A stretch of 54,375 nucleotides of DNA from Candidatus Peregrinibacteria bacterium (GCA_014729275.1 WJKE01000102.1:1-54375), one strand, 5' to 3'; counted from the stretch's first letter, positions 10,213 through 52,086 are shown. Notes: generated from the letters alone by a model not told the origin. Made by a program: numbers and translations.

Positions 10213-10434
10213 ACATAAAATTTTGCCTGCGCCTCCGTTTCGATCTCACATAGTTCGTCGAAACTGCGGCTTCGGCACGCTACCTCGCCATTATGTTCAA
10301 TGGGGGCTCACTGAAAAAGCTTGAAAAATTTACGGCCTGACCGGCCAATTTTTCATCGCTTTTTCTCTTTCGCCTTCGGCCACGCTAAGATCGCGTGGCT
10401 CTGCGGCTTCAGACCGTGAGCCTCGCTACTTTCA
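10213..10434. repeat. tRNA-trailer repeat region: two copies of a hairpin module (10225..10290, 10372..10430) plus a GTTCAATGGGG...CTGAAAAAGCTTGA block
   Basis: Shares the blocks AATTTTGCCTGCGCCTCCG, CTGCGGCTTCGG, CTCGCTACT and CTGAAAAAGCTTGA with 41160..41387. Each module contains a hairpin whose stem sequence differs between copies but stays complementary. Confidence 0.6.
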
Positions 10435-33170: not shown

Positions 33171-33210
33171 GTTTTATATATAACAGATTTACGTCGGGCC
33201 TGCCAGTGGG

Positions 33211-33373
33211 CTATTTTTGTGAAAATTGATGAATAATTGTGTTTCACCGCTGTGTTCGTAAAACCGGCTTTAAGGCTATTTTTGTGAAAATTGATAAATA
33301 ATTGTGTTTCACCGCTGTGTTCGTAAAACCGGCTTTAAGGCTATTTTTGTGAAAATTGATAAATAATTGTGTT
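33211..33373. repeat. 65-bp tandem direct repeat, 2.5 copies
   Basis: Units at 33211..33275, 33276..33340 and a partial one at 33341..33373 (CTATTTTTGTGAAAATTGAT[G/A]AATAATTGTGTTTCACCGCTGTGTTCGTAAAACCGGCTTTAAGG). Nearly identical; one G/A difference was seen. Confidence 0.9.
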
Positions 33374-33417
33374 AGATAATTTTTTTGTGATAAGTTTTAA
33401 TCCAATTTTTTAATAAT

Positions 33418-36340: not shown

Positions 36341-37135
36341 TCAATCAAACAGTGTTGTGTTCAGCTTAACTTTTTTCGGTAAAGTTATTGTCAGTATAGT
36401 GCTAATAAAAACAACAAGTAAAAAGGATGCGACTATGAAGATTGAGTTATTAATGATGTTAGAGTAAATGAATAACGGCACCCCAATTACAAATGATATT
36501 GCTATGCCTAAAAATACTCCTTTTTCGCTCAATCTTTTTTTGTATAAACTTAAAACTGTTGGAACCATCACACATGCTGCGATTGTATTGAAGATCCACC
36601 ATAAGTGTTTGAGTCCGAATTCCGGAATGTAATGTGTAATATAAGCAATGACCAGGCCTATGATTCCTATTCCAACCATGGCTAACCGGGCTGATGTGAT
36701 TTGTGATTTTTCGGAATTATTTTTACTAACATCGGTAATCCAGAGTGAACTTGTTGCCATTAGTCCGGAATCTAAGGTGGAACTTAAGCCCGAAAGCAAC
36801 ATTATAATAAAAAGAAGAATTGCCCATGATGGAAGTAGGGTTGTAACAGTTTGAATTCCGATCATGGAAGGGTCAATGCCCTGTGGCAAAGTTATTCCAA
36901 GATTAGGATTTACTGCCATGAATCCTAGAATGGATAAAGCAACCGGAACAATTCCAAAAATTAGGCTTCCGAAAATGAATGATTTTTTTAAATCTTTTTT
37001 CTTGATAGCAAATGAGCGCTGCCAATACTGTTGATCAGAAATAGAGCCCGCTAATAATCCAATTGCTGTAACAATTCCAAAAGAGAAGGCGACATCTGGA
37101 TTAAAAATACTGTCTATATTCGAAGTTCCTTCCAA
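36341..37135 (-). pseudogene. sodium:solute symporter (SSS) family gene fragment, N-terminally truncated
   Basis: 264 aa corresponding only to the C-terminal TM bundle (SDQQYWQRSFAIKKK motif). The frame is open upstream only to 37168, then hits a stop. The ~200 aa N-terminal half expected for this family is absent. Confidence 0.55.
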
Positions 37136-37709: not shown

Positions 37710-38306
37710 GGGGTTGAGAATCTTTACTGTACTTAGTAAAGATAATTCAATATAATTTTTATAGTTTTTATCAATCGAAAATATGTTTGATTTATTACTT
37801 GAATATAAATTTGTTATCGGCTTTATTGTGATAATTTGTGTTGGTGGGGGGGGTATTTTTTTGATTATGCTTATAGGGAAGGGTTTAAGGCAGGAAGAAA
37901 AGATCATGCTTATGAATTAAAAGTTGCAAAAAAAGAATAAAGAGATTGCTGAAAATCAGGTTAGAATGTTAGAAAATGAAGATGTTTAAAATTTTTGTTT
38001 TTTAATCTTAAATAGTTAAAATAAATTTGTTGATATTGATGACGTTAAAAATAAAGAGATAGAAAGATAAAAAAATGGTGAAATAACACCTGTACAAAAA
38101 AAATCATTTACGAGAAATGTCTTGATAATAATTGTTGTTGTTTTTGTTGTATTTTTTAGCGTTTATTATCTTATTTTTTATTTGCTAACATTTTAAAACC
38201 TAGTCGAAAGGGGGGTGGAGGAGATGGGGAATTTGTTGGAGTGAAAATTTTGATATTTTTTTAATTGGTATCTATACTTTAGTTAACTTAATAAAAAGAC
38301 ATTAAC

Positions 38307-39005
38307 ATGGGACAAATATATAATATTTATTGTGACGAGAGTTGTCATTTGGAAAATAGTAAAGATAACTCAATGGTTTTAGGCGGAATATGGTGTTTAG
38401 CCGATAAATATCACGACATATCAAAGAGAATTTTGGAAATAAAATCAAAATATAAAATTGCACCTGACTTTGAAATTAAATGGACCAAGGTCTCTCCAGC
38501 TAAAAAAAATTTTTATTTAGAGCTAATTGATTATTTTTTTGATGATGATGATATTCATTTTCGATGTGTTGTTGTTCCTGATAAATCAAAATTAGATCAT
38601 GAAAAATTTGATCAGACGCATGACCAATTTTATTACAAATTGTATTTTGATATGTTGAAAAACATTTTAACACCAAATGAACAATACCGTATTTATATTG
38701 ATATTAAAGATACAAGAGGGGCAATGAAAGTTAAAAAATTACAAGAGGTATTATGTAATAATATGTATGATTTCGATAGAAAAATAGTACAAAGATTTCA
38801 ACAGGTCCGTTCTCATGAAGTAACAATAATGCAAGTAACCGATCTATTAATTGGTGCTGTATCTTATCTATTCAGAGCTTTACAAACTAATTCAGCTAAA
38901 AAAGAACTTGTTGAAAGAATTAAAGAAAGATCCGGTTATTCACTTTATAAATCAACTCTTCTTAAAGAAGAAAAATTTAATCTTTTAGTTTGGGAACCGT
39001 CTTAA
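38307..39005 (+). CDS. DUF3800 family protein
   Basis: 232 aa. The N-terminal IYCDESCH (D-E-S motif) and the later YIDIKDTRG pattern are typical of DUF3800. Confidence 0.6.
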   Translation: MGQIYNIYCDESCHLENSKDNSMVLGGIWCLADKYHDISKRILEIKSKYKIAPDFEIKWTKVSPAKKNFYLELIDYFFDDDDIHFRCVVVPDKSKLDHEKFDQTHDQFYYKLYFDMLKNILTPNEQYRIYIDIKDTRGAMKVKKLQEVLCNNMYDFDRKIVQRFQQVRSHEVTIMQVTDLLIGAVSYLFRALQTNSAKKELVERIKERSGYSLYKSTLLKEEKFNLLVWEPS

Positions 39006-39030
39006 TAATTTTATACTACTTTATACTCTT

Positions 39031-39498
39031 ATGCTAAATTTACCTAATTTGATTAAACTTGAAGATTTTGGTGGAAATTGGGGAAAATATATTGATGCTG
39101 TTTACATGGTTTTTAAGGTTGATTTTTTAGATAAAAACCCAACCTTAAATGGAAAAAGAATCATTTTATGTAATAAAGATTTATATAGAGGTAAAGAAAA
39201 CACATTTTGGCATATAACCTCAGCTGGAAAAGAGGAAGAAGAGCGAATTCCCGATTTTTCAAAATGTGAAAGAATTAGGTGGATTGATTATTATATTAAT
39301 GAAGCCAATAATGATAATGAGTCTATTGTAATATGGGAAGAGGATAGAAAAGTTAAGATTTCTAATGATCAATGGGATTACGTTATTATTTTAATACCAA
39401 CAAGAAACTGCTATTTGTTATTAACTGCATATCCTGTTGAAAGGGAACACCGTAGATTAAAAATTAAAAAATCTTACTTACGCTCAAAATCCGCCTAG
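39031..39498 (+). CDS. hypothetical protein co-oriented with the DUF3800 gene
   Basis: 155-aa ORF, 25 nt downstream of the DUF3800 gene. No confident motif. A hairpin AAATCCG/CGGATTT spans the stop codon. Confidence 0.45.
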   Translation: MLNLPNLIKLEDFGGNWGKYIDAVYMVFKVDFLDKNPTLNGKRIILCNKDLYRGKENTFWHITSAGKEEEERIPDFSKCERIRWIDYYINEANNDNESIVIWEEDRKVKISNDQWDYVIILIPTRNCYLLLTAYPVEREHRRLKIKKSYLRSKSA

Positions 39499-39775
39499 TA
39501 ATAGACGGATTTCGTACTCCTTCTACGCATGGTAGATGAGCTATCTTAATGTTACGGTTTTAGTATTATATTGTCAATATGATTCGTCGGTTATTTGCTT
39601 AATAGTGCGCTTTTGTGAGATTAAAATTAATTCATCAGTATGAGCAATACAAGACTAAGTACTATACAAATATAGTTGAGTGCTAACTCTTAAATAGAGT
39701 TGAAAGTGTTTTTGATTAATTGAATAAAAATTTTTTTTGAAGTATAGATAGGTATATAATTTATATTTATGATTT

Positions 39776-40060
39776 ATGGAAAAAGGACCACAGCTAATTT
39801 TTTTAGGTGTTTGTGATAAATTTAAAGAAACTTTACTTGCAAGTGGAAGATTGGAAGATGGAAAAACTTTTCCAATTACAATGACCAATCTTTTGGGTTT
39901 ACGTTATTTTTATATTTCTTATGTCTATCCCTTACCAATCGATTTTTTTTATTTTGTATTTGCTATAGATATTGCAGATGACTTTGATCAGACATATAAA
40001 ATTAACATTATTGAAGAGGAGTCGATGCAAGAGGCCGGACATATGGAATTAAATATTTAA
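39776..40060 (+). CDS. hypothetical protein (possible accessory ORF or remnant upstream of the Shedu-like gene)
   Basis: 94-aa ORF, 51 nt upstream of 40112. No motif. Very AT-rich context. Confidence 0.3.
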   Translation: MEKGPQLIFLGVCDKFKETLLASGRLEDGKTFPITMTNLLGLRYFYISYVYPLPIDFFYFVFAIDIADDFDQTYKINIIEEESMQEAGHMELNI

Positions 40061-40111
40061 ACGGGATCATATGGATTACAAAAAGGACAGAAGCCCCAAA
40101 ATTATAAAATT

Positions 40112-41086
40112 ATGGGGGTAAAATTAAATGAAAATAATGGCGTAATTTTTAAAAAACCAGCTACTTATCTTATTTCATTGGAGAAAGAAAAAGGTAGTAC
40201 CTTATTAGGTAAAATTCAAATGGAGTATCAACTTTTACCAGAATATACAGATAAGGATCTTAATTTTATTAAAAATGATCCCATGGCTATGAAAAATGTT
40301 AGATTTACTATAGCCTGCAATAAATGTGATGATTTTATAAAACCTTACGTAGGGCTAAAAAAGGATGATGAATTAGCTAAAAAAGACCAACTGATTTGGT
40401 ATAAAGATGTTCCAGATCAATTTATTTGTGGTTGTGGAAAAACAATTGTTGATCTTAAATATATTAAACAAAATTTTCATGCCTTATTAGGAAGGAGGGG
40501 CTTAATTTTTCAAAATAATGGTTCATTTGAGATGGACTTTAATAAATCAGCATTTATTCAGGTTATTACAGATTTTAAAAAGTTAGTTGAAGATGAAACA
40601 AAGGCTCCTACTGGTGAAGCAACGTTACAAGACTTTATTGAAAAGAATCCTATAGTTTTAAGTTGTTTTTCCCCAGAATTGATAGAGCCGAAGGCCCCAA
40701 TTGGTTCAAAATATGAAACAGATTTTGCATTAATTAATCAGAAAAAAGAATTGATATTGATAGAAATTGAAAAACCTTCAACAAAATTGTTTAAAGCAAA
40801 AGGAGGAAGGCATAGTGAAGTTGGGGTAGCTTTTGATCAAGTTGAAGATTGGTTGAAAGAATGTCGTGAAGATAAATTAGGAGTCATTAGAAATTTAAAG
40901 ATGGAAGGTGTAAAAAATGATGATATTTGTGAAATTAGAGGTGTTATTATTGCCGGAAGAACTAAAGAAGAAGATATGGAATATATGGGAAAATTATTGA
41001 ATGGTCATAAGCATATAGACTTTTTTACTTATGACCATTTAATTGAGCAATTAATAGCAATATCTAGATCTTTAAGAGATCTTTAA
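40112..41086 (+). CDS. Shedu-like (DUF4263, PD-(D/E)xK) nuclease-domain protein with N-terminal Cys-rich region
   Basis: 324 aa. C-terminal half: YETDFALINQKKELILIEIEKPSTKLF (D...E-x-K), FDQVEDWL, VIIAGR...FFTYDHLIEQL, which matches my recollection of the DUF4263/SduA core. N-terminal CNKCDDF...CGCGK may be a zinc ribbon. Confidence 0.55.
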   Translation: MGVKLNENNGVIFKKPATYLISLEKEKGSTLLGKIQMEYQLLPEYTDKDLNFIKNDPMAMKNVRFTIACNKCDDFIKPYVGLKKDDELAKKDQLIWYKDVPDQFICGCGKTIVDLKYIKQNFHALLGRRGLIFQNNGSFEMDFNKSAFIQVITDFKKLVEDETKAPTGEATLQDFIEKNPIVLSCFSPELIEPKAPIGSKYETDFALINQKKELILIEIEKPSTKLFKAKGGRHSEVGVAFDQVEDWLKECREDKLGVIRNLKMEGVKNDDICEIRGVIIAGRTKEEDMEYMGKLLNGHKHIDFFTYDHLIEQLIAISRSLRDL

Positions 41087-41159
41087 ATCAATTTATGCGA
41101 ACTGGGATGATTGTTGTAATTCATCTGTTATTAATAAGAGATTATATTGAAAAAAAGTA

Positions 41160-41387
41160 GATTTTTTTCAATGCTAATATTGCGTTCAATAGGGATTTGC
41201 TGAAAAAGCTTGAGATTTTTGCAACCTTCTAATTAGGTATAGCGTTCAATTGGGTCCGCTAAAATTTCGTTGTAATTTGCGGACGCTTTAAGCTGCAAAT
41301 TACTCGAAATTTTGCCTGCGCCTCCGATCAAGTCTCTTTGGAGCTCGCTTGATCTGCGGCTTCGGATCGCAAATCTCGCTACTACCC
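41160..41387. repeat. tRNA-trailer repeat region: one hairpin module (41314..41383) plus two GTTCAAT-GGG blocks
   Basis: Shares AATTTTGCCTGCGCCTCCG, CTGCGGCTTCGG, CTCGCTACT and CTGAAAAAGCTTGA with 10213..10434. The module ends exactly 4 nt from the tRNA 3' end at both loci. Confidence 0.6.
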
Positions 41388-41433
41388 TGGAGCTGCGGAT
41401 GAGATTTGAACTCACGACCCCTTCCTTACCATG
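41388..41433 (-). pseudogene. 3' half of the split host tRNA-Thr(GGT) (anticodon loop to CCA); attR side
   Basis: Minus strand reads CATGGTAAGGAAGGGGTCGTGAGTTCAAATCTCATCCGCAGCTCCA. No matching 5' half lies adjacent; the complementary half is at 51850..51878. Confidence 0.85.
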
Positions 41434-41594
41434 TAGATACTGTAGGGGGTGTGCGGGGTTTTTATTTACTTTAAGCCGAGTTGTTATGAGCGTGCCGGTA
41501 GGTGTGCTGAGGGTGTGGTGAGGCACATCCGGAGTGAAATTTAAGTTGAGTATATCTTCAAAGAAATTAAAATAAAAGTTTAATTTTTAAATCG

Positions 41595-42650
41595 TTATTT
41601 TAGCTTATTTATAATTGTTTTTAGAGATTTTTCGTAACCTTTAATATTTGATGGGTATCTTTTTGATTCGATCCATTTAATTTTTTTAAAATTTAAACCT
41701 TTTCCTTTATATTCAATATTTTGATTTATGTCAGCTGCATCAATATGAGATATTATCCCCGTAGGAATTATGGATGGACCAATTTTAAACTCACGTGAGG
41801 CATATAATGGGAAATTTTTATCAAAATTGCATGGGTCAAAAATGAAAAGAAAAATTTTATAATCATATTCTTTTCTTCTTTTAAATTTGAATTCTCCTAA
41901 CTCTGCATAATGTGAAAGCAAATGCATTGAATGATCTCCTACTCCTATGTCTTCTAAATCAATTTTTCTTAATTTTGCTTTTTTATCTATGATAGAAAAT
42001 TTCTTAAAAAATAGATTCTTTTTTTCATCAAAAATTAACACCAAATATTTGTAACCTATTAAGGGGAAAGTTGTTGATATGCTAATTATTTTGGGAAGAT
42101 TTTTTATACTTGTTTTGCTTCTAACATCAGGAATCCCGATAGACAGTTGGAAGTTAGCGCAATTTATTAGGTCTTCTTGATTAAAGCCTTGTTTATTAAG
42201 TAAATAATCCCAATCAGAAAATTTTGATGGATGCGGGATATAATAATGATAAGAGTAAATAGATATAAATATTAGTGCAGTAATTGTGGCAAGCATTATT
42301 AATGAAGTACTATTAAGATTATTGATACTGAAATTTGCTGAAAATAGGAAAATCATGAACAAACCTATATCAATAATAATTATCCCTAAATAAGAAAGTG
42401 TTATTAGTTTTTGAATATCTTCGTATTCAGATTTATATTTTAAGATTAATTGATTATATTTTCGTATTCTTAGGACCTGTTTATTTTTTTGTTCTAAGTC
42501 TGTTGCGGAGGTTGTTCTTGGCAAGTAAAAGGCAAATAATTTATTCTTTAACTCTCTAATAGTTTTTAGTTGTGGTACTACATAAATTGCAAAAAAATAT
42601 GAATTAATAATGTAAAGAGCTAGGTTAATGTAAGGTTCAAAATTATCCAT
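41595..42650 (-). CDS. multi-TM hypothetical protein (island cargo)
   Basis: 351 aa. One N-terminal TM and a cluster of TM segments around residues 85-135, then a ~200-aa soluble C-terminal region. No motif recognised. Divergent from the RM gene. Confidence 0.5.
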   Translation of the reverse strand: MDNFEPYINLALYIINSYFFAIYVVPQLKTIRELKNKLFAFYLPRTTSATDLEQKNKQVLRIRKYNQLILKYKSEYEDIQKLITLSYLGIIIIDIGLFMIFLFSANFSINNLNSTSLIMLATITALIFISIYSYHYYIPHPSKFSDWDYLLNKQGFNQEDLINCANFQLSIGIPDVRSKTSIKNLPKIISISTTFPLIGYKYLVLIFDEKKNLFFKKFSIIDKKAKLRKIDLEDIGVGDHSMHLLSHYAELGEFKFKRRKEYDYKIFLFIFDPCNFDKNFPLYASREFKIGPSIIPTGIISHIDAADINQNIEYKGKGLNFKKIKWIESKRYPSNIKGYEKSLKTIINKLK

Positions 42651-42787
42651 TGTATTTATTAAAACAATTAGTAATCTACTTTAATAAAAATGTCATAGCA
42701 ATTTAAACAACAAAAAATAGGACTATATTCGAGTTTCATTATCATTTTCAGATAGATATAATAAGGGTGATTTATTAAAAAATTGTC

Positions 42788-45700
42788 GTGGCATCAATTT
42801 TTAAACAAAAAAAATTAAAAGAAGAACTTGAGAAATTTGAAATTCTGGAATTTGAGCAAAAGTTAGAAATAGTCAAAAAATGGCATAAGGCTTATGAAGA
42901 TGGAAGTTTGCAAAAAAAGAGTGAGAAAGAGGTTGAACAAGAGTTTATTCAGAGCTTTTTTGTGGATATTTTAGGATATACTCGATTCCCAGAAAATCCA
43001 CATACAATTATTCCACAGGGAAAAGTTCAAAAGGCTGGAGGTCAAAAACCTGATGCAATTTTGGGGTGTTTTGAGGAAGATAAGAAAATAAAAAGAGTTA
43101 GTGCGGTTTGTGAGATTAAAGATGCAAATACACCTTTAGATAAATCACAACAGAGAGCTGGGAGTATGACTCCGGTCCAGCAAGCTTTTAAATATAAATA
43201 TCAATATGATCGGTGTGATTTTGTGATTGCTACTAACTTTTTTGAAATCCGTCTTTTACAAGATACGGAATTGCATTATGAGAAATGGACATTAAAAACA
43301 CTTGTAGATGAAAAAAATGACTATTTTGACTTTAAAAAGTTTTACTATTTACTCTGTGAGAAAAATTTTGTGGCAAAGACGGGACAAAGTAGAACAGAAA
43401 AACTTCTATCGGAAATTCGGATTGAGGAAGAAGCAATTACCAAAAAGTTTTATGGTGAATACAAGAGTTTAAGATTAAGTTTGATTGGAAATATTTTGGC
43501 TAATAATGAGGAATTCTTAGGAGAGAATGCCTTGGATATTGCGATTGAAAAAGCTCAAAAGATTATTGATAGGATTGTTTTTGTATGTTTTTGTGAGGAC
43601 CTTGATTTGCTGCCTCAGCATAAATTGAAGGAAGTAGTCAATCATACTGAGAAAGTTGGTTTAGCTTTGCCGATTTGGGATATTATGAAAGGATTCTTTA
43701 ATGCTATTGATAGAGGTAGTGAAAAATTAGAGATTCCGCATGGTTTCAATGGTGAGTTATTTAAACAAGATCCTTTATTAGAAGGACTTAGAATTGATGA
43801 TGAACTTTGTAAGAGGTTTGTAGATTTAGGAAAATATGATTTTAGCGAAGATTTGACTGTAAATATTTTAGGACATATCTTTGAGCAATCAATAAGCGAT
43901 ATTGAAGATTTGAAGGCTTTGGATGATGTTGAAGAGCTTACAAAGAAGAAGTCAAAAAGGAAGAAGGAAGGCATTTTCTACACTCCCGAGTATATTGTTG
44001 ATTATATTGTAAAAAATTCAGTTGGGACTTGGCTTAAGGAAAGAGAAAAGGAATTATTAAAAAAACATGGGGTTAAGGAAGGTATTGAAGATAAAAATTA
44101 TAAGAAAAGATATCAAGCGGCTTATGAGGAATATCAAGGAGTTTTACAAAATATTAAAGTGTTAGATCCGGCCTGTGGTAGTGGTGCTTTTTTGGTGAAA
44201 GTATTTGATTATTTATTAGAAGAGAATAAAAGAGTGGGAGAGATTTTAGGAAATATATTTAGTGATGAAGGTTATATTAAAGACATTTTGCAGAATAATA
44301 TTTATGGTGTGGATTTAAATGAAGAGAGCGTGGAGATAACAAAATTATCTTTATGGTTAAAGACCGCAGAGAAAGGGAAAAAATTAACAACTTTAAAAGA
44401 AAATATAAAATGTGGAAATAGCTTAATAGATGATGTGGAAGTCGCTGGGGATAAAGCTTTTATATGGGAAAAGGAATTTAAAGAGATTATGGAAGCAGGG
44501 GGATTTGATGTGATTGTGGGAAATCCTCCATATGTAAGACAAGAACTGTTGAATTCAAAAATTAAAGAATTTTTAAATGTTAAGTATGATAATGTTGGCT
44601 CTTTTACTGCGGATCTTTATGTTTATTTTTTTGGGCTTTCATTGAGATTGCTTAATAGTAAAGGATTTTTAGGTTTTATTGCTCCAAATAAATGGATGGA
44701 AAGAAAATACGGATTTAACATGAGATGTTATATAAAAAATTATAATATTATTTATATAGTTAATTATGGAGAATTAAAGATTTTTGAGGATGCGAGTACT
44801 GAACCTGCAATATATATAATTAAAAATATCGAATCTCAAGATGATATCAACTATTCAAGATTAGAAAATTTAGCTTTAGCGCAAGCTACAGCCAATTATC
44901 ATTATGAAAAATATAAAAAATTTAATTTAGATGATAAAATATGGAGGTTTATTCCAAAAGAAAATCAAGTAATTTTAAATAAATTTCTAAAGAGCAATAA
45001 AAAAATATCTACTATTGGTGATTATACAAAGGGTGGTATCAAATATGGGATAAAAACTGGTTATAATACTGCTTTTATTATTAAAGAAGAGCAAAAAGAA
45101 CTTTTGATTGAAAATGATATAAAATCTTCTGAAATAATTAAACCTATGGTGGAAGGGGATGATTTTTCTGACTGGCATTTAATAAAGCAGGATAAATATA
45201 TGCTTGCTACTGGATATGATCTTGATATTCCTTCAGTATATCCTGCCATCTATGAATATTTAAAAAGTTACGAAGAAAAATTAATCAATAGATATGATAA
45301 AGGAGTAAATTATTGGAATCTAAGAGCTTGTGACTATTATGACTTGTTAGAGAAACCTAAAATTATCTTTTATCACACTGCAAAGCATCATTCTTTTTAT
45401 TATGATGAAGAGGGATTATATATAAGTGCAAATTGTTATTTTATTACAAATGTAGATAGATATTTGCAATGCTTTTTGAATTCGAAATTGTTTCAATTTG
45501 TTAAGAGGTATTTATTTCCGTCTTTTGGAGATCCAGAAAAAGGAGGACGTATGAGACTAGATGCAAATCAAATGAGAAAGGTTCCTATTGTTATTCCCGA
45601 AGCAAATCAAAAAGATGAATTTCATAAATTGGCAGAAAAAATTTCAAAATTTTCGACAGAAAGGCAGAGTGTTTTGGATAAGTTCGATAAGTTATTAAAA

Positions 45701-45952
45701 CAAGAATATAGTTTTAAATTTAAGAGTTCTCACATTTACAACTGGGATAAATTTATAGAAGAATTTAAGAAACAAAAAATTAAATTATCTTTATCTCAAA
45801 AAGATGAATTACTTCAAATTTTTGAAAAATATCAAAAGGAAATATTTGATTTTGATAATAAGATTAAGGCCATCGAGGAACAAATAAATAATGAAGTATT
45901 TGATTTATATGACTTAACTGATGATGAGAGAAGAATCGTATTAAATTTTTAA
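42788..45952 (+). CDS. type IIG/IIL restriction-modification fusion enzyme (N-terminal PD-ExK nuclease + Eco57I-like N6-adenine methyltransferase + TaqI_C-like target-recognition domain)
   Basis: 1054 aa with a GTG start. Nuclease-like PDAILG...VCEIKDAN. Methyltransferase motif I VLDPACGSGAFL and motif IV VIVGNPPYV. TRD-like region IWRFIP...GGIKYGIKTGYNTAFII. Confidence 0.8.
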   Translation: MASIFKQKKLKEELEKFEILEFEQKLEIVKKWHKAYEDGSLQKKSEKEVEQEFIQSFFVDILGYTRFPENPHTIIPQGKVQKAGGQKPDAILGCFEEDKKIKRVSAVCEIKDANTPLDKSQQRAGSMTPVQQAFKYKYQYDRCDFVIATNFFEIRLLQDTELHYEKWTLKTLVDEKNDYFDFKKFYYLLCEKNFVAKTGQSRTEKLLSEIRIEEEAITKKFYGEYKSLRLSLIGNILANNEEFLGENALDIAIEKAQKIIDRIVFVCFCEDLDLLPQHKLKEVVNHTEKVGLALPIWDIMKGFFNAIDRGSEKLEIPHGFNGELFKQDPLLEGLRIDDELCKRFVDLGKYDFSEDLTVNILGHIFEQSISDIEDLKALDDVEELTKKKSKRKKEGIFYTPEYIVDYIVKNSVGTWLKEREKELLKKHGVKEGIEDKNYKKRYQAAYEEYQGVLQNIKVLDPACGSGAFLVKVFDYLLEENKRVGEILGNIFSDEGYIKDILQNNIYGVDLNEESVEITKLSLWLKTAEKGKKLTTLKENIKCGNSLIDDVEVAGDKAFIWEKEFKEIMEAGGFDVIVGNPPYVRQELLNSKIKEFLNVKYDNVGSFTADLYVYFFGLSLRLLNSKGFLGFIAPNKWMERKYGFNMRCYIKNYNIIYIVNYGELKIFEDASTEPAIYIIKNIESQDDINYSRLENLALAQATANYHYEKYKKFNLDDKIWRFIPKENQVILNKFLKSNKKISTIGDYTKGGIKYGIKTGYNTAFIIKEEQKELLIENDIKSSEIIKPMVEGDDFSDWHLIKQDKYMLATGYDLDIPSVYPAIYEYLKSYEEKLINRYDKGVNYWNLRACDYYDLLEKPKIIFYHTAKHHSFYYDEEGLYISANCYFITNVDRYLQCFLNSKLFQFVKRYLFPSFGDPEKGGRMRLDANQMRKVPIVIPEANQKDEFHKLAEKISKFSTERQSVLDKFDKLLKQEYSFKFKSSHIYNWDKFIEEFKKQKIKLSLSQKDELLQIFEKYQKEIFDFDNKIKAIEEQINNEVFDLYDLTDDERRIVLNF

Positions 45953-45958
45953 TTAATT

Positions 45959-46711
45959 ATGTCCGAATATTACACACCAAAAAGAACCAGAAATTTATAT
46001 GCCACTAAAAGTAAAGAACCTTTTAAATTAAGTCGGTCCAAAATAGATTTATTTGTTGAATGTCCTAAATGTTTTTATTTAGATAGAAAATTGGGAGTTG
46101 CAAGACCTCCTGGCTTTCCTTTTGCTCTTAATAGTGCTGTAGATGCTTTGTTAAAACAAGAGTTTGATATTCACAGACTTAAAGGGACAAAACATCCTTT
46201 GATTAAAAAATATGGTATTGATGCTATTCCAATTTCACATGTTGAACTTGATAATTGGAGAAATAATTTTAAAGGCGTGCAATATCTTCACAAATCCACA
46301 AATTTACTCATTTTTGGAGCTATAGACGATCTTTGGCAGAATTCAAAGGGTGAGTTCATTGTTGTAGATTACAAGGCTACAGCGAAAGCTGAAGATATCA
46401 CGGTGCTTGATAAAAGTTGGCATGAGGGTTATAAGAGGCAAATGGAAGTTTACCAATGGCTATTGAGAAAAAATGGATACAAGGTCTCTGACATCGGTTA
46501 TTTTGTTTATTGTAATGGGAAAGCGGACCGAAAGGCTTTTGATGGAAAACTTGAATTTGATGTTACCGTGATCCCTTATAAAGGTTCTGATAAATGGGTG
46601 CCGAAAAAAATTAAAGAAACTTATAAGTGTTTGAATTCTTCAAAGATTCCAAAAGCTTCTGAGGATTGTGATTATTGTAATTATAGAGATGCTGTTTCAA
46701 GTGTACTTTAA
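45959..46711 (+). CDS. Cas4/RecB-like PD-(D/E)xK nuclease with four-Cys cluster
   Basis: 250 aa, 6 nt after the RM gene. N-terminal CPKC, core GAIDDLW...FIVVDYKAT (D...D-Y-K), QMEVYQWL (QxxxY), C-terminal CDYC. Confidence 0.65.
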   Translation: MSEYYTPKRTRNLYATKSKEPFKLSRSKIDLFVECPKCFYLDRKLGVARPPGFPFALNSAVDALLKQEFDIHRLKGTKHPLIKKYGIDAIPISHVELDNWRNNFKGVQYLHKSTNLLIFGAIDDLWQNSKGEFIVVDYKATAKAEDITVLDKSWHEGYKRQMEVYQWLLRKNGYKVSDIGYFVYCNGKADRKAFDGKLEFDVTVIPYKGSDKWVPKKIKETYKCLNSSKIPKASEDCDYCNYRDAVSSVL

Positions 46712-46800
46712 TCTAAAATTACAATAGTTTTTGAGGCTTATAAAAAAGAGTCCCTTAAGCGAAAATTTGAGTTTTTCGTCTATATAAAAAAGGGGCAAAA

Positions 46801-46839
46801 AAATAGTATTTTCGGGTATATAAAAAGAGATTATTTTTT
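46801..46839 (+). promoter_or_regulatory. conserved upstream motif, copy 1 (AAATAGTATTTTCGGGTATATAAAAAGAGATTATTTTTT)
   Basis: Nearly identical to 47670..47709. Contains a TATATAA -10-like element. A degenerate extra copy lies at 46772..46793. Lies 47 nt upstream of the ATG at 46886. Confidence 0.45.
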
Positions 46840-46885
46840 AATAAATATTTTATAGATGATATAATCATTGCCTTAATAATTTATT

Positions 46886-47671
46886 ATGAAAAGTTCTTTT
46901 ACGATAAAAGTTTCTAAGCCATTATCGGAGGGAGAGGCAAAACCAGAAGCTATGGTGGGAGATGCTGAAGGTAATTGGAAACCTACGGACAAAATAATTT
47001 GGGCTAGAATGCATGTTGAAAATGACATTAAAGAATTGGAAGAAATTTTTAATCCGTATAAAGAATATTTTTCAACTGGTCGAATAAAAAATATTCGATA
47101 TAAATTATATGCTTTAAGATATGAAAAAGAAGCTTATATAAAGGCTGAAGAAGAAAAAGAGCGTGAATATAAAAAAGGATTTCAACCGGGTTTAGGAATG
47201 GAATTTACAGAATCAAATTTGAGAGCTCTATATCGAGTAGAGTCTTTTCTTTTTCAAGCAAAAAGTACATTAGATATTATGTCTCTTATTTTAAAGGATA
47301 AAATCCAAAATTATACCTTTGAGGGGTTTGGAAAATCTTGTGACGAAAATAATGAGGAGCTTGCAGGTCAAAAGATTATAAAGGAATTAAAAAAAATAGA
47401 TTCTGAACATGATTTTGAACCCTTGATAAAATTAATAAAGGACAATCAGTCTTGGCTTACTGAATTAGTAAAAGAAAGAGACAAGATTGCTCATAATACT
47501 TCTATTCAAGCTTTATGGTTTGTTGAGCTTACATATAAAGGGGGTGATTATCTTGAAATTGTTTATCCCCATATGCCCAACGATATTCGAATAAAAGAAT
47601 ATTTAGAATTAGTTGAAAGAAGGTTACATATTTTTGTGCAGAATTTTTTATCTTTGGTTTCAAAATTTTAA
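46886..47671 (+). CDS. hypothetical protein with HEPN-like R-x4-H motif (RDKIAH)
   Basis: 261 aa. ELVKERDKIAHNTS resembles the R[ND]xxAH catalytic motif of Abi-type HEPN RNases. This is single-motif evidence only. Confidence 0.4.
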   Translation: MKSSFTIKVSKPLSEGEAKPEAMVGDAEGNWKPTDKIIWARMHVENDIKELEEIFNPYKEYFSTGRIKNIRYKLYALRYEKEAYIKAEEEKEREYKKGFQPGLGMEFTESNLRALYRVESFLFQAKSTLDIMSLILKDKIQNYTFEGFGKSCDENNEELAGQKIIKELKKIDSEHDFEPLIKLIKDNQSWLTELVKERDKIAHNTSIQALWFVELTYKGGDYLEIVYPHMPNDIRIKEYLELVERRLHIFVQNFLSLVSKF

Positions 47672-47709
47672 ATAGTTTTTTCGGGTATATAAAAAGAGAT
47701 TAATTTTTT
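47670..47709 (+). promoter_or_regulatory. conserved upstream motif, copy 2 (AAATAGTTTTTTCGGGTATATAAAAAGAGATTAATTTTTT)
   Basis: Nearly identical to 46801..46839. Starts at the stop codon of the preceding gene and ends 10 nt before the ATG at 47719. Confidence 0.45.
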
Positions 47710-47718
47710 GGAATAAAA

Positions 47719-48423
47719 ATGTATTATTCGGCTATGGAAGATTTTTTGTTTTACCTGCAATTACTGATTAAATCAGTGCCTTCATTTAATGAGGGGGTCG
47801 AGGCTATTCGAAATAAATATAAATGCTACCCTTCGACCTCTATGCATGATAACAGGGCTGATTTAAGAGATGTCCGGAAATTAATGGAAGAACATTTTAT
47901 TCCGGATAAGGAAAAATATTTGGACCTCGTTTGTAAATTTATATACACAAATACCTTTTCCAATAAATATCTCGTTAGAGACTGTTTAAATGCCTCTGAG
48001 GAGCATCCCAGAGAGTTGGTCGTTACACGCCCGGCTATAACAATACATATTTTTGAAAAGATGAATGAGGAGGAATGGAGGGATATTTGGAGTAAATATA
48101 TAAAAGAGGGGCATTTAGAAATTAATTATGGAGATCATATCGAAGGACCGGCGTGGTTAGAAAAAGAAGATAAAAGGGAATACTTGAATAAAATGTCTAT
48201 TGAAGCTTTAAAGCGTCCTCATAGTGATATTAAGAAACAATTAAATTTTCGTTTGGCTTTTAAACTTTTTGGGCTTCGTAAGAATCGAGTTGAAATTTCT
48301 GAAATTTTAGATAAAATGGCATCGATAAAGGAAGAATGTGGAATTAGTAAGAAGAGAATATTTACAAAAGAAGAGGTTAATCAAATGATTTCCGACTTCG
48401 CAAAAGAGTTAGAAAAGCTTTAG
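47719..48423 (+). CDS. hypothetical protein (island cargo)
   Basis: 234-aa ORF preceded by the conserved motif. No domain recognised. Confidence 0.45.
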   Translation: MYYSAMEDFLFYLQLLIKSVPSFNEGVEAIRNKYKCYPSTSMHDNRADLRDVRKLMEEHFIPDKEKYLDLVCKFIYTNTFSNKYLVRDCLNASEEHPRELVVTRPAITIHIFEKMNEEEWRDIWSKYIKEGHLEINYGDHIEGPAWLEKEDKREYLNKMSIEALKRPHSDIKKQLNFRLAFKLFGLRKNRVEISEILDKMASIKEECGISKKRIFTKEEVNQMISDFAKELEKL

Positions 48424-48520
48424 TCTAGAGCACGATAAATCCCCGCGAACTTTACTCTGAGGATTTTTTTATAATGTTGATTTACCATCGGGTTGCTTTT
48501 GTAATTAAAGAAAACATCCC

Positions 48521-49504
48521 GTGATAGATGAATCAAACAAATTGTGGAAATTACTGCCGGATTCGGAAATTAAATCTTTCAAATCCAAAGTACCCCCAAA
48601 CCAAAAACCATTATGGTTTTACTGGAATGAATTTGTCCATAAATATTTAAGAACCGGTAAAAGTGAAATAACGGTTAGTAATGTTCGTGATGCATTAAGG
48701 TTTATAATCCGGAATGTGAGTCTGTATTCTATTGAACAGGTTAATGATCACCGGACTTTGGAAGATTTTTTGCATAAGGTAAAAGACAAGAGGGGGCTTA
48801 ATCCAACGACATTTAATACTTATTTGAAAAATCTAAATACATTTTTTATTTGGCTTCACAGACAGGATTATATTGCTGATAACAATATTTTGAAGGTTCA
48901 AAAATGCAAACAGACCGAGAACGAACAATATATATTATCCGAGACTCAGGTTAAACAGATTGTCTCTCATATTCATGACCGGAGACAAACACGTTTATTG
49001 AGATTCAGAAATATTTTTTTTATTGATTTGCTTAGGTTTACCGGGGCAAGGCCTTGTGAGATACAGGAAATTCAATGTAAGGATATAAGAGGTGAAAAAG
49101 GGACATACGTCTTAGTGATTCATGGGAAAAAGCAGAAAGGAAAACCACGGTATTATAGATTCCCTTCGTGGCTTAGGGATTCTTATGAGAATTATGTTTC
49201 TTACCGGTCCCGTGTCCGTGATAACGAGTCTTATTTGTTCATTTCTTCGTCAACACAGGGGCGGTGGACTTCTAAGGGGATGAAATGCCTCTTTAACAAA
49301 CTGTCTGATGAATTGGGCTTTAGAGTAATTGCTTACGGTTTCAGGAGGTATGTGGCAACAAAGCTATATTTAGCTGAGGTCCCGATGACAGACATTCAAC
49401 AATATTTAGGGCATACAAGGATTACTACGACTATAAGGTATGTTGAGAGGACATGTGCTTTGACTAAGAAGGGGGCGGATGTGATGGGGAAGGCGTTAAA
49501 TTAA
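48521..49504 (+). CDS. tyrosine recombinase/integrase (second, inward-facing copy)
   Basis: 327 aa with a GTG start. Has FTGARPCEI (Arg I), HGKKQKGK (Lys), YGFRRYVAT (box II, with the His apparently replaced) and LGHTRITTTIRY (His/Tyr). Confidence 0.75.
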   Translation: MIDESNKLWKLLPDSEIKSFKSKVPPNQKPLWFYWNEFVHKYLRTGKSEITVSNVRDALRFIIRNVSLYSIEQVNDHRTLEDFLHKVKDKRGLNPTTFNTYLKNLNTFFIWLHRQDYIADNNILKVQKCKQTENEQYILSETQVKQIVSHIHDRRQTRLLRFRNIFFIDLLRFTGARPCEIQEIQCKDIRGEKGTYVLVIHGKKQKGKPRYYRFPSWLRDSYENYVSYRSRVRDNESYLFISSSTQGRWTSKGMKCLFNKLSDELGFRVIAYGFRRYVATKLYLAEVPMTDIQQYLGHTRITTTIRYVERTCALTKKGADVMGKALN

Positions 49505-50709
49505 TTTATTCCTCTAAAGAACGGATATAATTCTTTAATTTCATTTGAAAGCCCAAACTTATTGAAAGTTGTCATGGCTATTCTCAAAATATGAGGGTGC
49601 TCTTCTAAATTTTCATAAATATCTAATTTTAATCTTTGAAGTCTTTCTCTTTTATTTAATATTTTTGAGAAATATAAAATTATTAAATTTTCAAGATTGT
49701 TTATATCTGTGATATTTATATTATTAAGTTCGGATTCTATTTCTATATGATTTTTTATTGATAAATAAGTAAATACTAGACTATTAGGGAATAATTCATC
49801 TTGGATTTTTGATATTTGTAAATTTTGAATAAACTTATTAAGAGTTTTTTGTCCAAATATTTTTTTAAAAAAATTTTGAAATCCAGTTCCCCATAATATT
49901 TCATTTGATTTAATTCTACATAAATCTGAAGTCTGATATGTAATTAGTGAAGAATTAAATAAATTTTTTGGTGAATAAATAATTAATAATAAATTCATTA
50001 TTTTTAAACACTTAATATGAAAAACTAAAATTTTTTTTACTTTCAGAATTTCTCGAATAATAAAGTCGTTTTGTAATAAAGTCTCAGAGCATAATGCCCC
50101 TTGCTTATGGGTATATTTTGATAAGTTATGATACATTTCTCCAATAAAGTTTTTAGAAATAATCGAATCATTATTTGCAAAGTCTGTATTATAGAGCTGA
50201 ATTGTATTTTTAAAATATTTTGCTTGATAATCTAAAATTGGTGTTAATGCCCCCTTAAAACTTATAGGGCAACTTCCGTTATCCCAACTTGTTAACTCAC
50301 TATTTATATTATCTTTTTGAAATAGAAGACCAAAAATTTTTACTACTGTCTCCAAACAATTTCTCAATAAGCTTGCACTGGAATTAATTTTGAAATTTTT
50401 AAGAAGAAGTAATGAATTTTCGATTTCAGAATATGATTCAAGAAAATATTTTAATATTTGTGAATAATTGTTTTTATTCTCCTTTTTGATTACGCTTAGA
50501 GATAGATTAAAAGTTTTAAACCAATTTGATTCAATAAATTCTATTTGCTTGAAATCTTCATCTTCACATATTTTTGTAAATAAAATTCTAAAAATTATAT
50601 CTAACTCTGGAAGATTTAATTTAACGTCTGTGTCATTTTGAATCATTAATTTATATACCTGTTGACTCTCTTTAATTTTATTTTCGACAATAGTTGGATC
50701 AGTAATCAT
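49501..50709 (-). CDS. hypothetical protein co-transcribed with the att-proximal integrase
   Basis: 402 aa in extremely AT-rich sequence. Starts 3 nt after the integrase stop. Its 3' end overlaps the convergent recombinase gene by 4 nt. No domain recognised. Confidence 0.45.
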   Translation of the reverse strand: MITDPTIVENKIKESQQVYKLMIQNDTDVKLNLPELDIIFRILFTKICEDEDFKQIEFIESNWFKTFNLSLSVIKKENKNNYSQILKYFLESYSEIENSLLLLKNFKINSSASLLRNCLETVVKIFGLLFQKDNINSELTSWDNGSCPISFKGALTPILDYQAKYFKNTIQLYNTDFANNDSIISKNFIGEMYHNLSKYTHKQGALCSETLLQNDFIIREILKVKKILVFHIKCLKIMNLLLIIYSPKNLFNSSLITYQTSDLCRIKSNEILWGTGFQNFFKKIFGQKTLNKFIQNLQISKIQDELFPNSLVFTYLSIKNHIEIESELNNINITDINNLENLIILYFSKILNKRERLQRLKLDIYENLEEHPHILRIAMTTFNKFGLSNEIKELYPFFRGIN

Positions 50710-50712
50710 GCC

Positions 50713-51609
50713 TTAATTTAACGAATGCATCTCAATCGATTTACTCAGTTGTTGATTTGAACAATAAAGGTAAATCGTGGTTGTGGTTATTCTACTATGT
50801 CCCATTATCTTAGATAAAGTATAAATGTCACAGCCCCCTTCGAGCATAAGGCGGGCGAATGCATGTCTTAAAATATGAGCGGAAAAATCTATTTCGGTCC
50901 TTTGTTTGATTTTATTTATAAGCTTCTTTATGCAACTCTCTGTTATTGGTTCATCTTTTTGAGCACCGGTGAAAAAGTGGATGCACGTTTTATTCATCCG
51001 GTCCCGTTCCTTCAAATATTCCTCCAATATTTGAGCAAGTTTGCAGTTTACGGGAACCAAGCGATCTTTACTCCATTTTGCCTGTGAGATGAATATTGTC
51101 CGGTTTTCCAACGAGACATCATTTAACTTTAGCTTTATGACCTCTTGCCTTCTCAGTCCGGCTAAGACCATAATTCCGATGATTGCACGATTCCGGTATC
51201 TTTCAATTTTAAAGTGATATCGCATATGATATGAGGTATCCAAAATCAGAGTTGCTTCGTCCTTTGATAAGGTTCGGGGGAGTTTGTGCTCTATGCGTGG
51301 TTTTTCAATCGATTCCAAATGATTCTCTTCAATGTGCTTTTCCCGAATAAGCCATTTGATAAAAGGATTTAAATGTTTATAGTGATCCCGAAATGTGGAA
51401 GCGGACCATTTCCTTTCAAGCCTTCCATTGTAAAACCATTTCTCCAAAAGATCCCTTGTTAGGTCCTGTGGATATTCGGCACCGGATTCTCTTAAGAATA
51501 ATTTAAAAGTAGTTTGGTATGATTTGATTGTGTACTTTGAAAAGTTTCGGATAATCGTGCAAAACTGGAGATAGCGAAACATAAGGTCCTTTAACTTTGG
51601 GGTGTCCAT
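50713..51609 (-). CDS. tyrosine recombinase/integrase (XerC/D-like), att-proximal
   Basis: 298 aa. Has LAGLRRQEV (Arg I), SAHILRHAFA (HxxR) and MGHSRITTTTIYLY (His, Tyr nucleophile). Adjacent to and co-oriented with the island tRNA-Thr. Confidence 0.85.
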   Translation of the reverse strand: MDTPKLKDLMFRYLQFCTIIRNFSKYTIKSYQTTFKLFLRESGAEYPQDLTRDLLEKWFYNGRLERKWSASTFRDHYKHLNPFIKWLIREKHIEENHLESIEKPRIEHKLPRTLSKDEATLILDTSYHMRYHFKIERYRNRAIIGIMVLAGLRRQEVIKLKLNDVSLENRTIFISQAKWSKDRLVPVNCKLAQILEEYLKERDRMNKTCIHFFTGAQKDEPITESCIKKLINKIKQRTEIDFSAHILRHAFARLMLEGGCDIYTLSKIMGHSRITTTTIYLYCSNQQLSKSIEMHSLN

Positions 51610-51649
51610 AAATAAGTGATTAAGAAATAAATCTTTATCACTCCAAACG

Positions 51650-51725
51650 TGGAGCCACCAAGCAGAATTGAACTGCTGACCTCGCCCTTACCATGGGCGC
51701 GCTCTACCAACTGAGCTATGGTGGC
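51650..51725 (-). tRNA. tRNA-Thr(GGT), complete, CCA encoded; island-borne
   Basis: Minus strand reads GCCACCATAGCTCAGTTGGTAGAGCGCGCCCATGGTAAGGGCGAGGTCAGCAGTTCAATTCTGCTTGGTGGCTCCA. Acceptor GCCACCA/TGGTGGC, anticodon stem CGCCC/GGGCG, loop ATGGTAA, T arm AGCAG/CTGCT. Confidence 0.9.
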
Positions 51726-51838
51726 TTAAAGTAATTTTTCAGGGCCACATCTCCGCAGGTGTGGCGTTTGTACTGATTTTCAATTGTTCGATTTCCTTAT
51801 CTTCCAGAGCAGAGTCGGTTCTTTTTTCGAGGGTCGCA

Positions 51839-51878
51839 TCCTTACCATGGAAGTGCTCTACCCCTGAGCTACCGCAGC
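51839..51878 (-). pseudogene. 5' half of the split host tRNA-Thr(GGT) (acceptor 5' strand to anticodon loop); attL side
   Basis: Minus strand reads GCTGCGGTAGCTCAGGGGTAGAGCACTTCCATGGTAAGGA and is then followed by non-tRNA sequence. The acceptor and anticodon-stem strands are exactly complementary to those in 41388..41433. Confidence 0.85.
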
Positions 51879-52086
51879 CGGTATAAAAATTCGCATCGAA
51901 TTTTACGGCATAGTTAGGGCTTTTTCAAGTTTTTGTGCAAAGTGTTTTTGTGCGGTATTTGGCTTAAAAAAAAGCGGAGAGCTCCTAGAAAGGATTCTCC
52001 GACTTTTATCTGCTTCTAGAATTATTTTATCTGATTAATCAAAATATGCAAGCTTTTCTATCCGGTTCTAAAAATACGCAGAGGTA

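Follow-up and report, generated by a model that had tools for sequence, protein, structure and literature searches.

A candidate integrative island that splits the tRNA-Thr(GGT) gene of a Peregrinibacteria bacterium and carries one of its own

Introduction

Classical islands integrated into transfer RNA (tRNA) genes (tDNAs) restore their target (Islander database, PMC4383910). A different strategy, called tRNA-dependent lysogeny, has been shown experimentally in the actinobacteriophages Fionnbharth, LeBron, Gaia and others (Guerrero-Bustamante and Hatfull, mBio 2024, PMC10865867), whose cores of 8-17 base pairs (bp) disrupt the host tRNA gene and which need a cognate tRNA gene of their own (PMC10865867). 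Here, we analyzed a stretch of DNA of 54,375 nucleotides (nt) from Candidatus Peregrinibacteria bacterium (GCA_014729275.1 WJKE01000102.1:1-54375), hereafter the window, in which 10.4 kb separate the two halves of a host tRNA-Thr(GGT) gene (tRNA A) and include a complete tRNA-Thr(GGT) gene (tRNA B).

The authors of the phage study suggest a wider occurrence of the strategy and name prophage Lj965 of Lactobacillus johnsonii (PMC10865867), and a later paper mentions Mesorhizobium-phage-like prophages in this connection. Breaking a tRNA gene and bringing one's own is nonetheless a strategy previously shown experimentally only in actinobacterial phages, and our literature search found no published description of it in Peregrinibacteria or in non-phage islands. 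The locus was brought to attention by a reading of the DNA sequence alone (the original prediction), which proposed a mobile island with base-resolution ends in the anticodon loop of a tRNA-Thr(GGT). Since tRNA-dependent lysogeny has already been published (PMC10865867), the phenomenon is less novel than was then implied.

Two halves of a tRNA-Thr(GGT) gene bound a 10.4-kb island

The two sequences quoted in the original prediction are present on the minus strand, at 51878..51850 and 41433..41388. Upon in silico deletion of 41434..51849, ARAGORN detects a tRNA-Thr(ggt) of 75 nt that spans the junction; the rejoined sequence adopts a canonical cloverleaf, whose acceptor stem has 7 bp, and encodes CCA. 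A BLAST search of the reassembled tRNA A against the window returned two pieces only, both 100% identical: positions 30-75 match 41433..41388 (E = 9e-22), and positions 1-40 match 51878..51839 (E = 3e-18). As had been predicted, an 11-bp repeat, TCCTTACCATG, lies at both junctions; it has exactly two copies in the window, at 41423 and 51839, and identity between the junctions ends immediately outside it on both sides.

Read on the strand of the tRNA, this common core (CATGGTAAGGA) takes in the 7-nt anticodon loop ATGGTAA together with one stem base on its 5' side (the last of the 5' anticodon-stem strand) and three on its 3' side. The 5' half of tRNA A (positions 1-29; 51850..51878, minus strand) holds the 5' strand of the acceptor stem, the D arm, and the first 4 nt of the 5' strand of the anticodon stem, whose fifth base is the first base of the core; it runs into the attL copy of the core (51839..51849, minus strand). 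At the other end, the attR copy (41423..41433, minus strand) is followed by the rest of the 3' half (41388..41422, minus strand), comprising the 3' anticodon stem, the variable loop, the T arm, the 3' strand of the acceptor stem, and CCA. The island end adjoining attR (41434..41500, minus strand) corresponds to the left arm of attP and contains a GGCTTAA motif. The junction of rejoined tRNA A (attB) would read GAGCACTTCCATGGTAAGGAAGGGGTCG, and that of attP CTACAGTATCTACATGGTAAGGATGCGACCCTCG. The guanine-cytosine (GC) content of the island is 0.306, as compared to 0.36-0.38 in the flanks.

The contig comes from a metagenome-assembled genome, and one may ask whether the arrangement arose by chimeric assembly or by tRNA-like fragments falling together by chance. 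However, the 7-bp acceptor strands of the two halves are complementary, the layout is found in at least 18 independent assemblies (NCBI, JGI, ENA, Logan), and the exact 10-mer CATGGTAAGG occurs three times in the window against 0.07 occurrences expected by chance, the third copy being the anticodon loop of the intact tRNA B. We therefore regard an artefact of this kind as barely credible. These data support a mobile island whose ends can be placed to the base in the anticodon loop of tRNA A, with the crossover within the 11-bp core.

No tRNA was found at the attL or attR junction by ARAGORN or Rfam. At attL, the core gives way to non-tRNA sequence, and a tDNA fragment able to restore the target is absent from attP; because the island has no tRNA 3' half next to the core, neither junction rebuilds tRNA A. 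The proposal that integration disrupted the gene instead of regenerating it is thus borne out at both junctions, but simple loss is an incomplete account, the island carrying a full-length tRNA-Thr(GGT). Similarly, each half does lack its own partner next to it, as predicted, but a complete tRNA-Thr(GGT) lies 113 nt from the 5' half, or 124 nt if the core is included. We found no further fragments of tRNA A or B in the window that would point to tandem or older islands.

Altogether, we put at about 80% the probability that 41434..51849 is a 10.4-kb integrative island that broke tRNA A at its anticodon loop and brought tRNA B as a replacement.

The island carries a complete tRNA-Thr(GGT) gene

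tRNA B (51650..51725, minus strand), identified by ARAGORN, is 76 nt long with an encoded CCA. It belongs to the insertion, where 113 nt separate it from the attL core and 40 nt from int1, the first of two recombinase genes, which lies downstream. It scores 65.5 bits with the Rfam tRNA model when the region is scanned alone; an Rfam scan of the whole window at the gathering threshold omits it, which is a filter artefact. Since tRNA B has its own perfectly paired acceptor stem and is 71% identical to tRNA A in the window (identity matrix), it is not a hybrid of the halves of tRNA A. The presence of a full-length tRNA-Thr(GGT) adjoining the junction, and its conservation across the island family described below, argue for replacement and not for loss.

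Between the attL core and tRNA B lies an island-borne spacer (51726..51838, minus strand), which represents the right arm of attP according to alignments A1 and A3 and to the reconstructed attP sites. It starts with TGCGACCCTC in the window (family consensus TGTACTCCTC), and is kept together with int1 across loci that have different host flanks. A consensus scan detected a sigma-70-like promoter, TTGAAA-17-TAAAAT (10/12), at 51900..51928 on the minus strand, a position upstream of the 5' half of tRNA A by about 21 nt, and no promoter-like site in the spacer between this half and tRNA B. From its position, the site may drive read-through transcription that reaches tRNA B.

Intact halves, a promoter-like site retained at the 5' half, and a division in the anticodon loop, as in archaeal split tRNAs, would also be expected if tRNA A were a functional bacterial split tRNA, whose halves are produced as separate transcripts and then joined, or annealed, in trans, the situation in Nanoarchaeum equitans. 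However, the stretch that follows the 5' half shows no complementarity to the one that precedes the 3' half (duplex of -5.5 kcal/mol vs a shuffle mean of -6.3, z = +0.4), and upstream of the 3' half the scan gave no promoter-like site on the strand of the tRNA. Every locus of split layout has a complete replacement gene, the 5' half has decayed in one related island (L059), and to our knowledge bacteria do not have the archaeal splicing endonuclease. Because the halves lack complementarity, trans-splicing of the Nanoarchaeum type is very unlikely.

Recombinases and cargo of the island

The expected tyrosine recombinase genes are present, in the form of two genes with a Phage_integrase domain, int1 (50713..51609, minus strand) and int2 (48521..49504, plus strand). 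int1 codes for a 298-amino-acid (aa) Xer-like tyrosine recombinase (Pfam PF00589 Phage_integrase, E = 9e-32), starts 40 nt from tRNA B and about 230 nt from attL, and its residues R153, H245, R248, H271, and Y280 are invariant across 32 homologues (alignment A2). int2, convergent to int1, codes for a second tyrosine recombinase of 327 aa (Pfam Phage_integrase) that is 23% identical to Int1. The best solved-structure matches are XerC-like, XerD, XerA, and XerH. On the NCBIfam models, Int1 reaches 168 bits for XerD (cut-off 329.6) and 159 bits for XerC (cut-off 335), and Int2 scores 73-80 bits on both, also below the cut-offs.

The uniform length and broad distribution of int1 led us to consider that it might be the housekeeping xerD. 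This was rejected on the NCBIfam cut-offs and on its place inside a repeat-bounded unit, and is also ruled out by a second copy on one contig and by the att structures of two relatives (L061 and L073). An exact-protein look-up of encoding contigs returned no record of the exact int1 product or its flanking proteins.

The remaining genes of the island code for a 402-aa protein with no family match (49501..50709, minus strand; GC 0.228); a 234-aa protein upstream of int2 (47719..48423, plus strand), also with no family match, which is weakly conserved beside int2 in L071 and L055 (tblastn) and might, speculatively, be a candidate accessory or directionality factor; a 261-aa protein with no family match (46886..47671, plus strand); a PD-(D/E)XK/Cas4-like nuclease (45959..46711, plus strand; Pfam PDDEXK_1, E = 2.5e-12; PADLOC Cas4 models); a type IIG restriction-modification enzyme of the Eco57I/MmeI type (42788..45952, plus strand; Pfam Eco57I, E = 3e-46), which matches PADLOC REase_MTase_IIG over its full length with 464 bits; and a 351-aa protein predicted from its sequence to be a membrane protein (41595..42650, minus strand). 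With the type IIG enzyme and the Cas4-like nuclease, the cargo of this island is one of anti-phage defence.

A temperate prophage practising tRNA-dependent lysogeny in the strict published sense would follow the identical att logic, with a short core, a tRNA that is not rebuilt, and a cognate tRNA gene on the element. However, PHROGs matches in the island are limited to integrases and to methyltransferase-like and exonuclease-like proteins, and we found no phage capsid, tail, terminase, lysis, or repressor/immunity genes with this database. Moreover, the element is only 10.4 kb long, the cargo of its relatives consists of NTPases, nucleases, and restriction-modification genes, and the family attL motif CATGGTAAGGATGTACTCCTC, which joins the core to the conserved start of the spacer, has no match in the viral contigs of IMG/VR. 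A prophage is thus a highly improbable identity for this element.

The layout recurs in related islands

We identified 490 homologues of int1 at E <= 1e-20, and gathered their contexts by exact-protein look-up and by a metagenome scan with the int1 alignment. Among the best 120 of the 490, identity is 54-77% and length nearly always about 298 aa; the homologues belong to Peregrinibacteria, Gracilibacteria, and other Patescibacteria. Nearly every homologue that is at least 55% identical has a tRNA-Thr(GGT) 40-150 nt upstream. In 18 distinct loci from Peregrinibacteria and related candidate phyla, a spacer and, beyond it, the 5' half of a second tRNA-Thr(GGT) lie upstream of this tRNA (the window, L047 with the near-identical contigs L049 and L050, L051-L055, L057, L059, L060, L063-L066, L068, and L070-L072). 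The recurrent order is 5' half, core, conserved spacer of about 115 nt, tRNA B, int1, convergent int2, variable cargo, core, and 3' half.

The upstream 5' halves of the 18 loci end in C(A/T)TGGTAAGG, and the spacer of 110-135 nt that follows starts with (GG)ATGTACTCCTC in the family and with ATGCGACCCTC in the window. The core and the anticodon loop of tRNA B are 154 nt apart in the window, L047, L049, and L050, and 153 nt apart in L051. Per-sequence folding gives a hairpin of variable sequence 10-25 nt upstream of tRNA B in most loci (mean z -1.5; 10/18 loci below -1.5); in the window it is a 9-bp hairpin at 51744..51765 (GCCACATCTCCGCAGGTGTGGC on the plus strand), 18 nt upstream of tRNA B. 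This hairpin was not recovered from the aligned spacers by RNAalifold, which gave only a 4-bp stem, AGGA/TCCT, directly after the core. A hairpin conserved in position upstream of tRNA B is suggested by the individual folds.

Both ends were captured in eight loci, where the island measures 6.2-10.7 kb between exact repeats of 10-13 bp. In all but one of these (7/8) the halves reassemble into a tRNA-Thr accepted by ARAGORN, the exception being L059. Its orphan 5' half (L059:9680-9725) has lost the D-arm region (GCCACCATAGCTGCGTT-core), and its acceptor strand is mismatched to the 3' half.

By tblastn, homologues of int2 are 33-57% identical and convergent to int1 in almost every locus. Beyond this backbone the genes are unrelated from island to island, and include type III restriction-modification systems, KAP NTPases, SMC/AAA ATPases, and an SF1 helicase, as well as a HerA-like ATPase, a PIN protein, an SLH protein, and an aminotransferase. 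Since the last two are also carried, the cargo of the family is not all defence. The reconstructed attP sites have in common GGCTAA/G motifs on both sides of the core, at a distance of about 30-45 nt, and inverted repeats of the GTACA type that flank the core; in the relatives, GGCTAA/G lies about 30 nt from the core on the spacer side, and GGCTAA/TTAGCC-type motifs lie at 35-45 nt on the other side. The recurrence of the layout, the conservation of the spacer, and the attP motifs indicate that the spacer, tRNA B, int1, and int2 form the conserved backbone of a mobile unit and move as one.

A regenerating sister, an empty site, and distant members

One relative presents a different state. L061 (L061:2380-7783) has an int1 60% identical to that of the window and an int2 homologue, and lacks an upstream 5' half: an intact tRNA-Thr is followed by int1 and then, 5.3 kb downstream, by a perfect 46-nt repeat that runs from CATGGTAAGG to CCA. 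This is a textbook regenerating island, and because its repeat starts at CATGGTAAGG, we conclude that crossover in this recombinase family takes place in the anticodon loop. L058 and L062 are also devoid of an upstream 5' half; in L062 a homologue of the 583-aa protein encoded in the flank of the window lies about 3 kb upstream of the tRNA.

An empty site is found in L085, where a single uninterrupted tRNA-Thr(GGT) is 69/75 (92%) identical to tRNA A. This contig has only one copy of the core and neither int1 nor int2, and the tRNA adjoins a homologue of the 583-aa flanking protein (P0122) in the same divergent orientation as in the window, homologues of this protein being rare. The original prediction had proposed that failure of the rejoined sequence as a tRNA, or halves never contiguous in related genomes, would speak against it; the rejoined sequence is called as a tRNA, and L085 offers an uninterrupted counterpart at a syntenic locus free of the recombinases. 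As the L085 tRNA resembles tRNA A (92% identity, as compared to 71% between A and B), tRNA A is the native gene of the locus and tRNA B the one that came with the element.

A scan of genome contigs also found the central 39 nt of tRNA A contiguous in 46 unrelated genomes, mostly Lewinellaceae. None of these tRNA-Thr genes has the acceptor stem of tRNA A (8-15 mismatches), and on this ground they were rejected as true empty sites; they show contiguity in principle only.

More distant recombinase homologues (40-49% identical) have other arrangements. In L073 (9790-10000) a bare core and a tRNA 3' half lie directly upstream of the recombinase gene, and in L084 (9790-10000) a 3' tRNA fragment does, in both cases with no 5' half, which might reflect an attP-like configuration or a tandem junction. 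In L077 the recombinase gene adjoins a tRNA-Lys(TTT). In L076 (9461-9889; metagenome contig Ga0316203_1000336), whose int1 is 47% identical, tRNA B has a 214-nt insertion right after the anticodon (...CATGGT, 214 nt, AAGGGTG...), which is highly structured (-76 kcal/mol, z = -3.6). The gene is accepted by the intron option of ARAGORN, and removal of the insertion leaves a clean tRNA-Thr; no intron of group I or group II was found with Rfam. With the insertion in place, tRNA B has no att core, and the upstream core copy of this locus is not preceded by a tRNA 5' half.

Mobile unit or resident module

The family might alternatively be a resident docking module, in which the spacer, tRNA B, int1, and int2 have long been vertically inherited in Peregrinibacteria and only the cargo turns over, for example by recombination between related islands, the tRNA halves being remnants of a single ancient insertion that chance or gene conversion has preserved. 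Int1 homologues are uniform (about 298 aa, 54-77% identical) and are found in many Peregrinibacteria and Gracilibacteria on contigs of 1-2 Mb, a neighbourhood of tRNA-Thr, tRNA-Ser(GGA), and tRNA-Trp recurs, the flanking 583-aa gene is syntenic in L060, L071, and L062, tRNAs A and B are 88-100% identical within L057, L063, L068, and L072, and our scans of viral and metagenome contigs did not yield an excised form. However, halves that are 6-11 kb apart still reassemble in 7/8 loci, with decay in L059 only, whereas wider decay would be expected of an ancient, unselected relic, which disfavours this view. The Int1 proteins of L054 and L072 are 85% identical, but their host tRNAs A only 73%. Moreover, two recombinase copies (P0083 and P0089) are present on one 1.93-Mb contig, distant members adjoin other tRNAs or bare 3' halves (L077, L073, L084), and L085 offers an empty site. 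On balance we consider a resident module unlikely.

Several observations weigh against a mobile island that replaces the tRNA it breaks. The wide distribution and uniform length of int1 may reflect long vertical residence instead of frequent transfer, and the pairwise identities of int1, A, and B are uncorrelated and do not discriminate between transfer and vertical descent. The attP-arm motifs are weaker in the window than in its relatives, and L085 is only a distant relative, with a flanking protein 30% identical. The 5' half plus core gave 0 matches in metagenome contigs, as did the family attL motif in IMG/VR, and neither the excised circle nor the attP junction was found in the scans of viral and metagenome contigs. 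In L072 (9743-18020) tRNA B is 100% identical to the reassembled tRNA A, compared to 73% in L054 and 71% in the window; this identity suggests gene conversion or local capture, which would fit it better than simple import. Finally, a 54-kb window leaves room for another tRNA-Thr(GGT), or a wobble-capable tRNA-Thr(UGU), elsewhere in the genome, and the expression, aminoacylation, and need of tRNA B are presumed.

Proposed mechanism and implications

We propose that one or both tyrosine recombinases of the island recombine attP with the anticodon loop of tRNA A, the only sequence in common being the 11-bp core. Integration would be catalysed by Int1, probably together with Int2 as a XerC/D-like pair, and would leave tRNA A as two halves 10.4 kb apart. 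tRNA B would then sit directly downstream of the orphan 5' half and its promoter, from which it would presumably be transcribed by read-through, thereby supplying the decoding function and making up for the lost tRNA A. Precise excision would restore tRNA A.

A further proposal, which we put forward tentatively and with considerable doubt, is that tRNA B is a stabilising device of a family of defence islands. By a hostage effect, the island could hold the only working tRNA-Thr(GGT), so that its imprecise loss would cost the cell that tRNA; a promoterless tRNA B could be expressed only once integration places it behind the host tRNA promoter; and Int1 and Int2 could act as a XerC/D-like heteromer on an asymmetric attP. 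If the L076 insertion is a self-splicing intron, it would erase the att core of tRNA B and be a natural case of an intron that keeps integrases off a tRNA gene. Together, the hostage and intron readings, if true, would provide a link to the hypothesis that tRNA disruption and introns have been shaped by conflict with integrating elements.

On the main proposal, the strategy described in actinobacteriophages in 2024 would extend to widespread small non-phage defence islands of Peregrinibacteria and their relatives, with different enzymes. The base-resolution att sites, the classical sister, and the empty site form a set for studying the evolution of attP from regenerating to non-regenerating. 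There are also practical consequences: island finders that expect an intact tDNA and one fragment will mis-delimit these islands, and tRNA annotation of these genomes will report the island-borne gene as the tRNA-Thr(GGT) of the organism.

Other features of the window

A repeated element of about 65 nt occurs at 41312-41378, 10222-10285, and 10375-10432 (all on the minus strand), directly downstream of the 3' half of tRNA A and near a tRNA-Ser(GGA). It has the form GTAGCG..CCGAAGCCGCAG - hairpin - CGGAGGCGCAGGCAAAATTT, and its hairpin stems vary yet stay paired (ATCAAG/CTTGAT vs TTTCGA/TCGAAA). It was found in none of the fetched loci.

A second low-GC patch (0.28) of defence genes, at 38000-41100, abuts the outer side of attR. 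It contains PDC-M04A (38307-39005), PDC-M04B (39031-39498), and a Shedu SduA-like nuclease gene (40112-41086), and we could not find any recombinase or further tRNA fragment in it. Near the edge of this patch, a sodium:solute symporter open reading frame (36341-37135, minus strand) matches PF00474 over its C-terminal half only (profile positions 201-404 of 406), and may be a truncated gene. An intergenic region at 33209-33403 contains three tandem copies of a 65-nt unit that are 100%, 98%, and 66% identical.

Comparison with known systems

Division of a tRNA gene at the anticodon loop is shared with the archaeal split and disrupted tRNAs of Nanoarchaeum and with the tRNA-Thr(GGU) of Caldiarchaeum (Sugahara 2012, PMC3293823). 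The Caldiarchaeum locus further resembles ours in having a recombinase-encoding element between a tRNA fragment and an intact tRNA-Thr(GGU) (PMC3293823). In contrast to these, the host here is a bacterium, trans-splicing signals are absent, and the halves appear to be by-products of reversible site-specific integration and not functional genes.

With classical tDNA islands of the 'A' sublocation (Williams 2002; PMC4383910), the island has in common direct repeats derived from the tDNA, an integrase near the tRNA end, a crossover in the anticodon loop, atypical GC content, and variable cargo, and L061 with its 46-nt repeat fits this class exactly. The island of the window has a recombinase near its end, an attB in a tRNA, and an unoccupied site, although a distant one (L085); it differs from the class in that its attP has no tDNA 3' fragment beside the core, so that the target is not restored, and in that both a 5' and a 3' half are displaced.

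Xer-like recombinases are known to be exploited or carried by mobile elements, such as the integrative mobile elements exploiting Xer (IMEXs) and XerT of the Helicobacter TnPZ elements. Int1 and Int2 are Xer-like in length and sequence, and their conserved pairing suggests that they may form a heteromeric recombinase. However, they differ from XerC/XerD in scoring far below the NCBIfam equivalog cut-offs, in targeting a tRNA anticodon loop and not a dif site, and in being encoded inside the mobile unit.

The behaviour of the element matches tRNA-dependent lysogeny in several respects. Here also, a tyrosine recombinase would act at an attB inside a host tRNA gene, through a core of 11 bp as compared to 8-17 bp in the phages, and the tRNA is rebuilt at neither attL nor attR. 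In both, the element has a tRNA with the same anticodon, which here is tRNA B in the 18 loci of split layout, and close relatives regenerate their target (Boilgate and Ximenita among the phages, L061 here). The requirement for the element's tRNA has been shown in the phages, and tRNA B may likewise be required. Unlike the temperate phages, the element described here is a small non-phage island with variable, mostly defence-like cargo, in a bacterium of the candidate phyla radiation. It has a conserved pair of short Xer-like enzymes that, judging by their sequences, lack the arm-binding N-terminal domain of lambda-type integrases, and its tRNA is fixed at about 115 nt from the core, between attP and int1, where integration would place it downstream of the host promoter.

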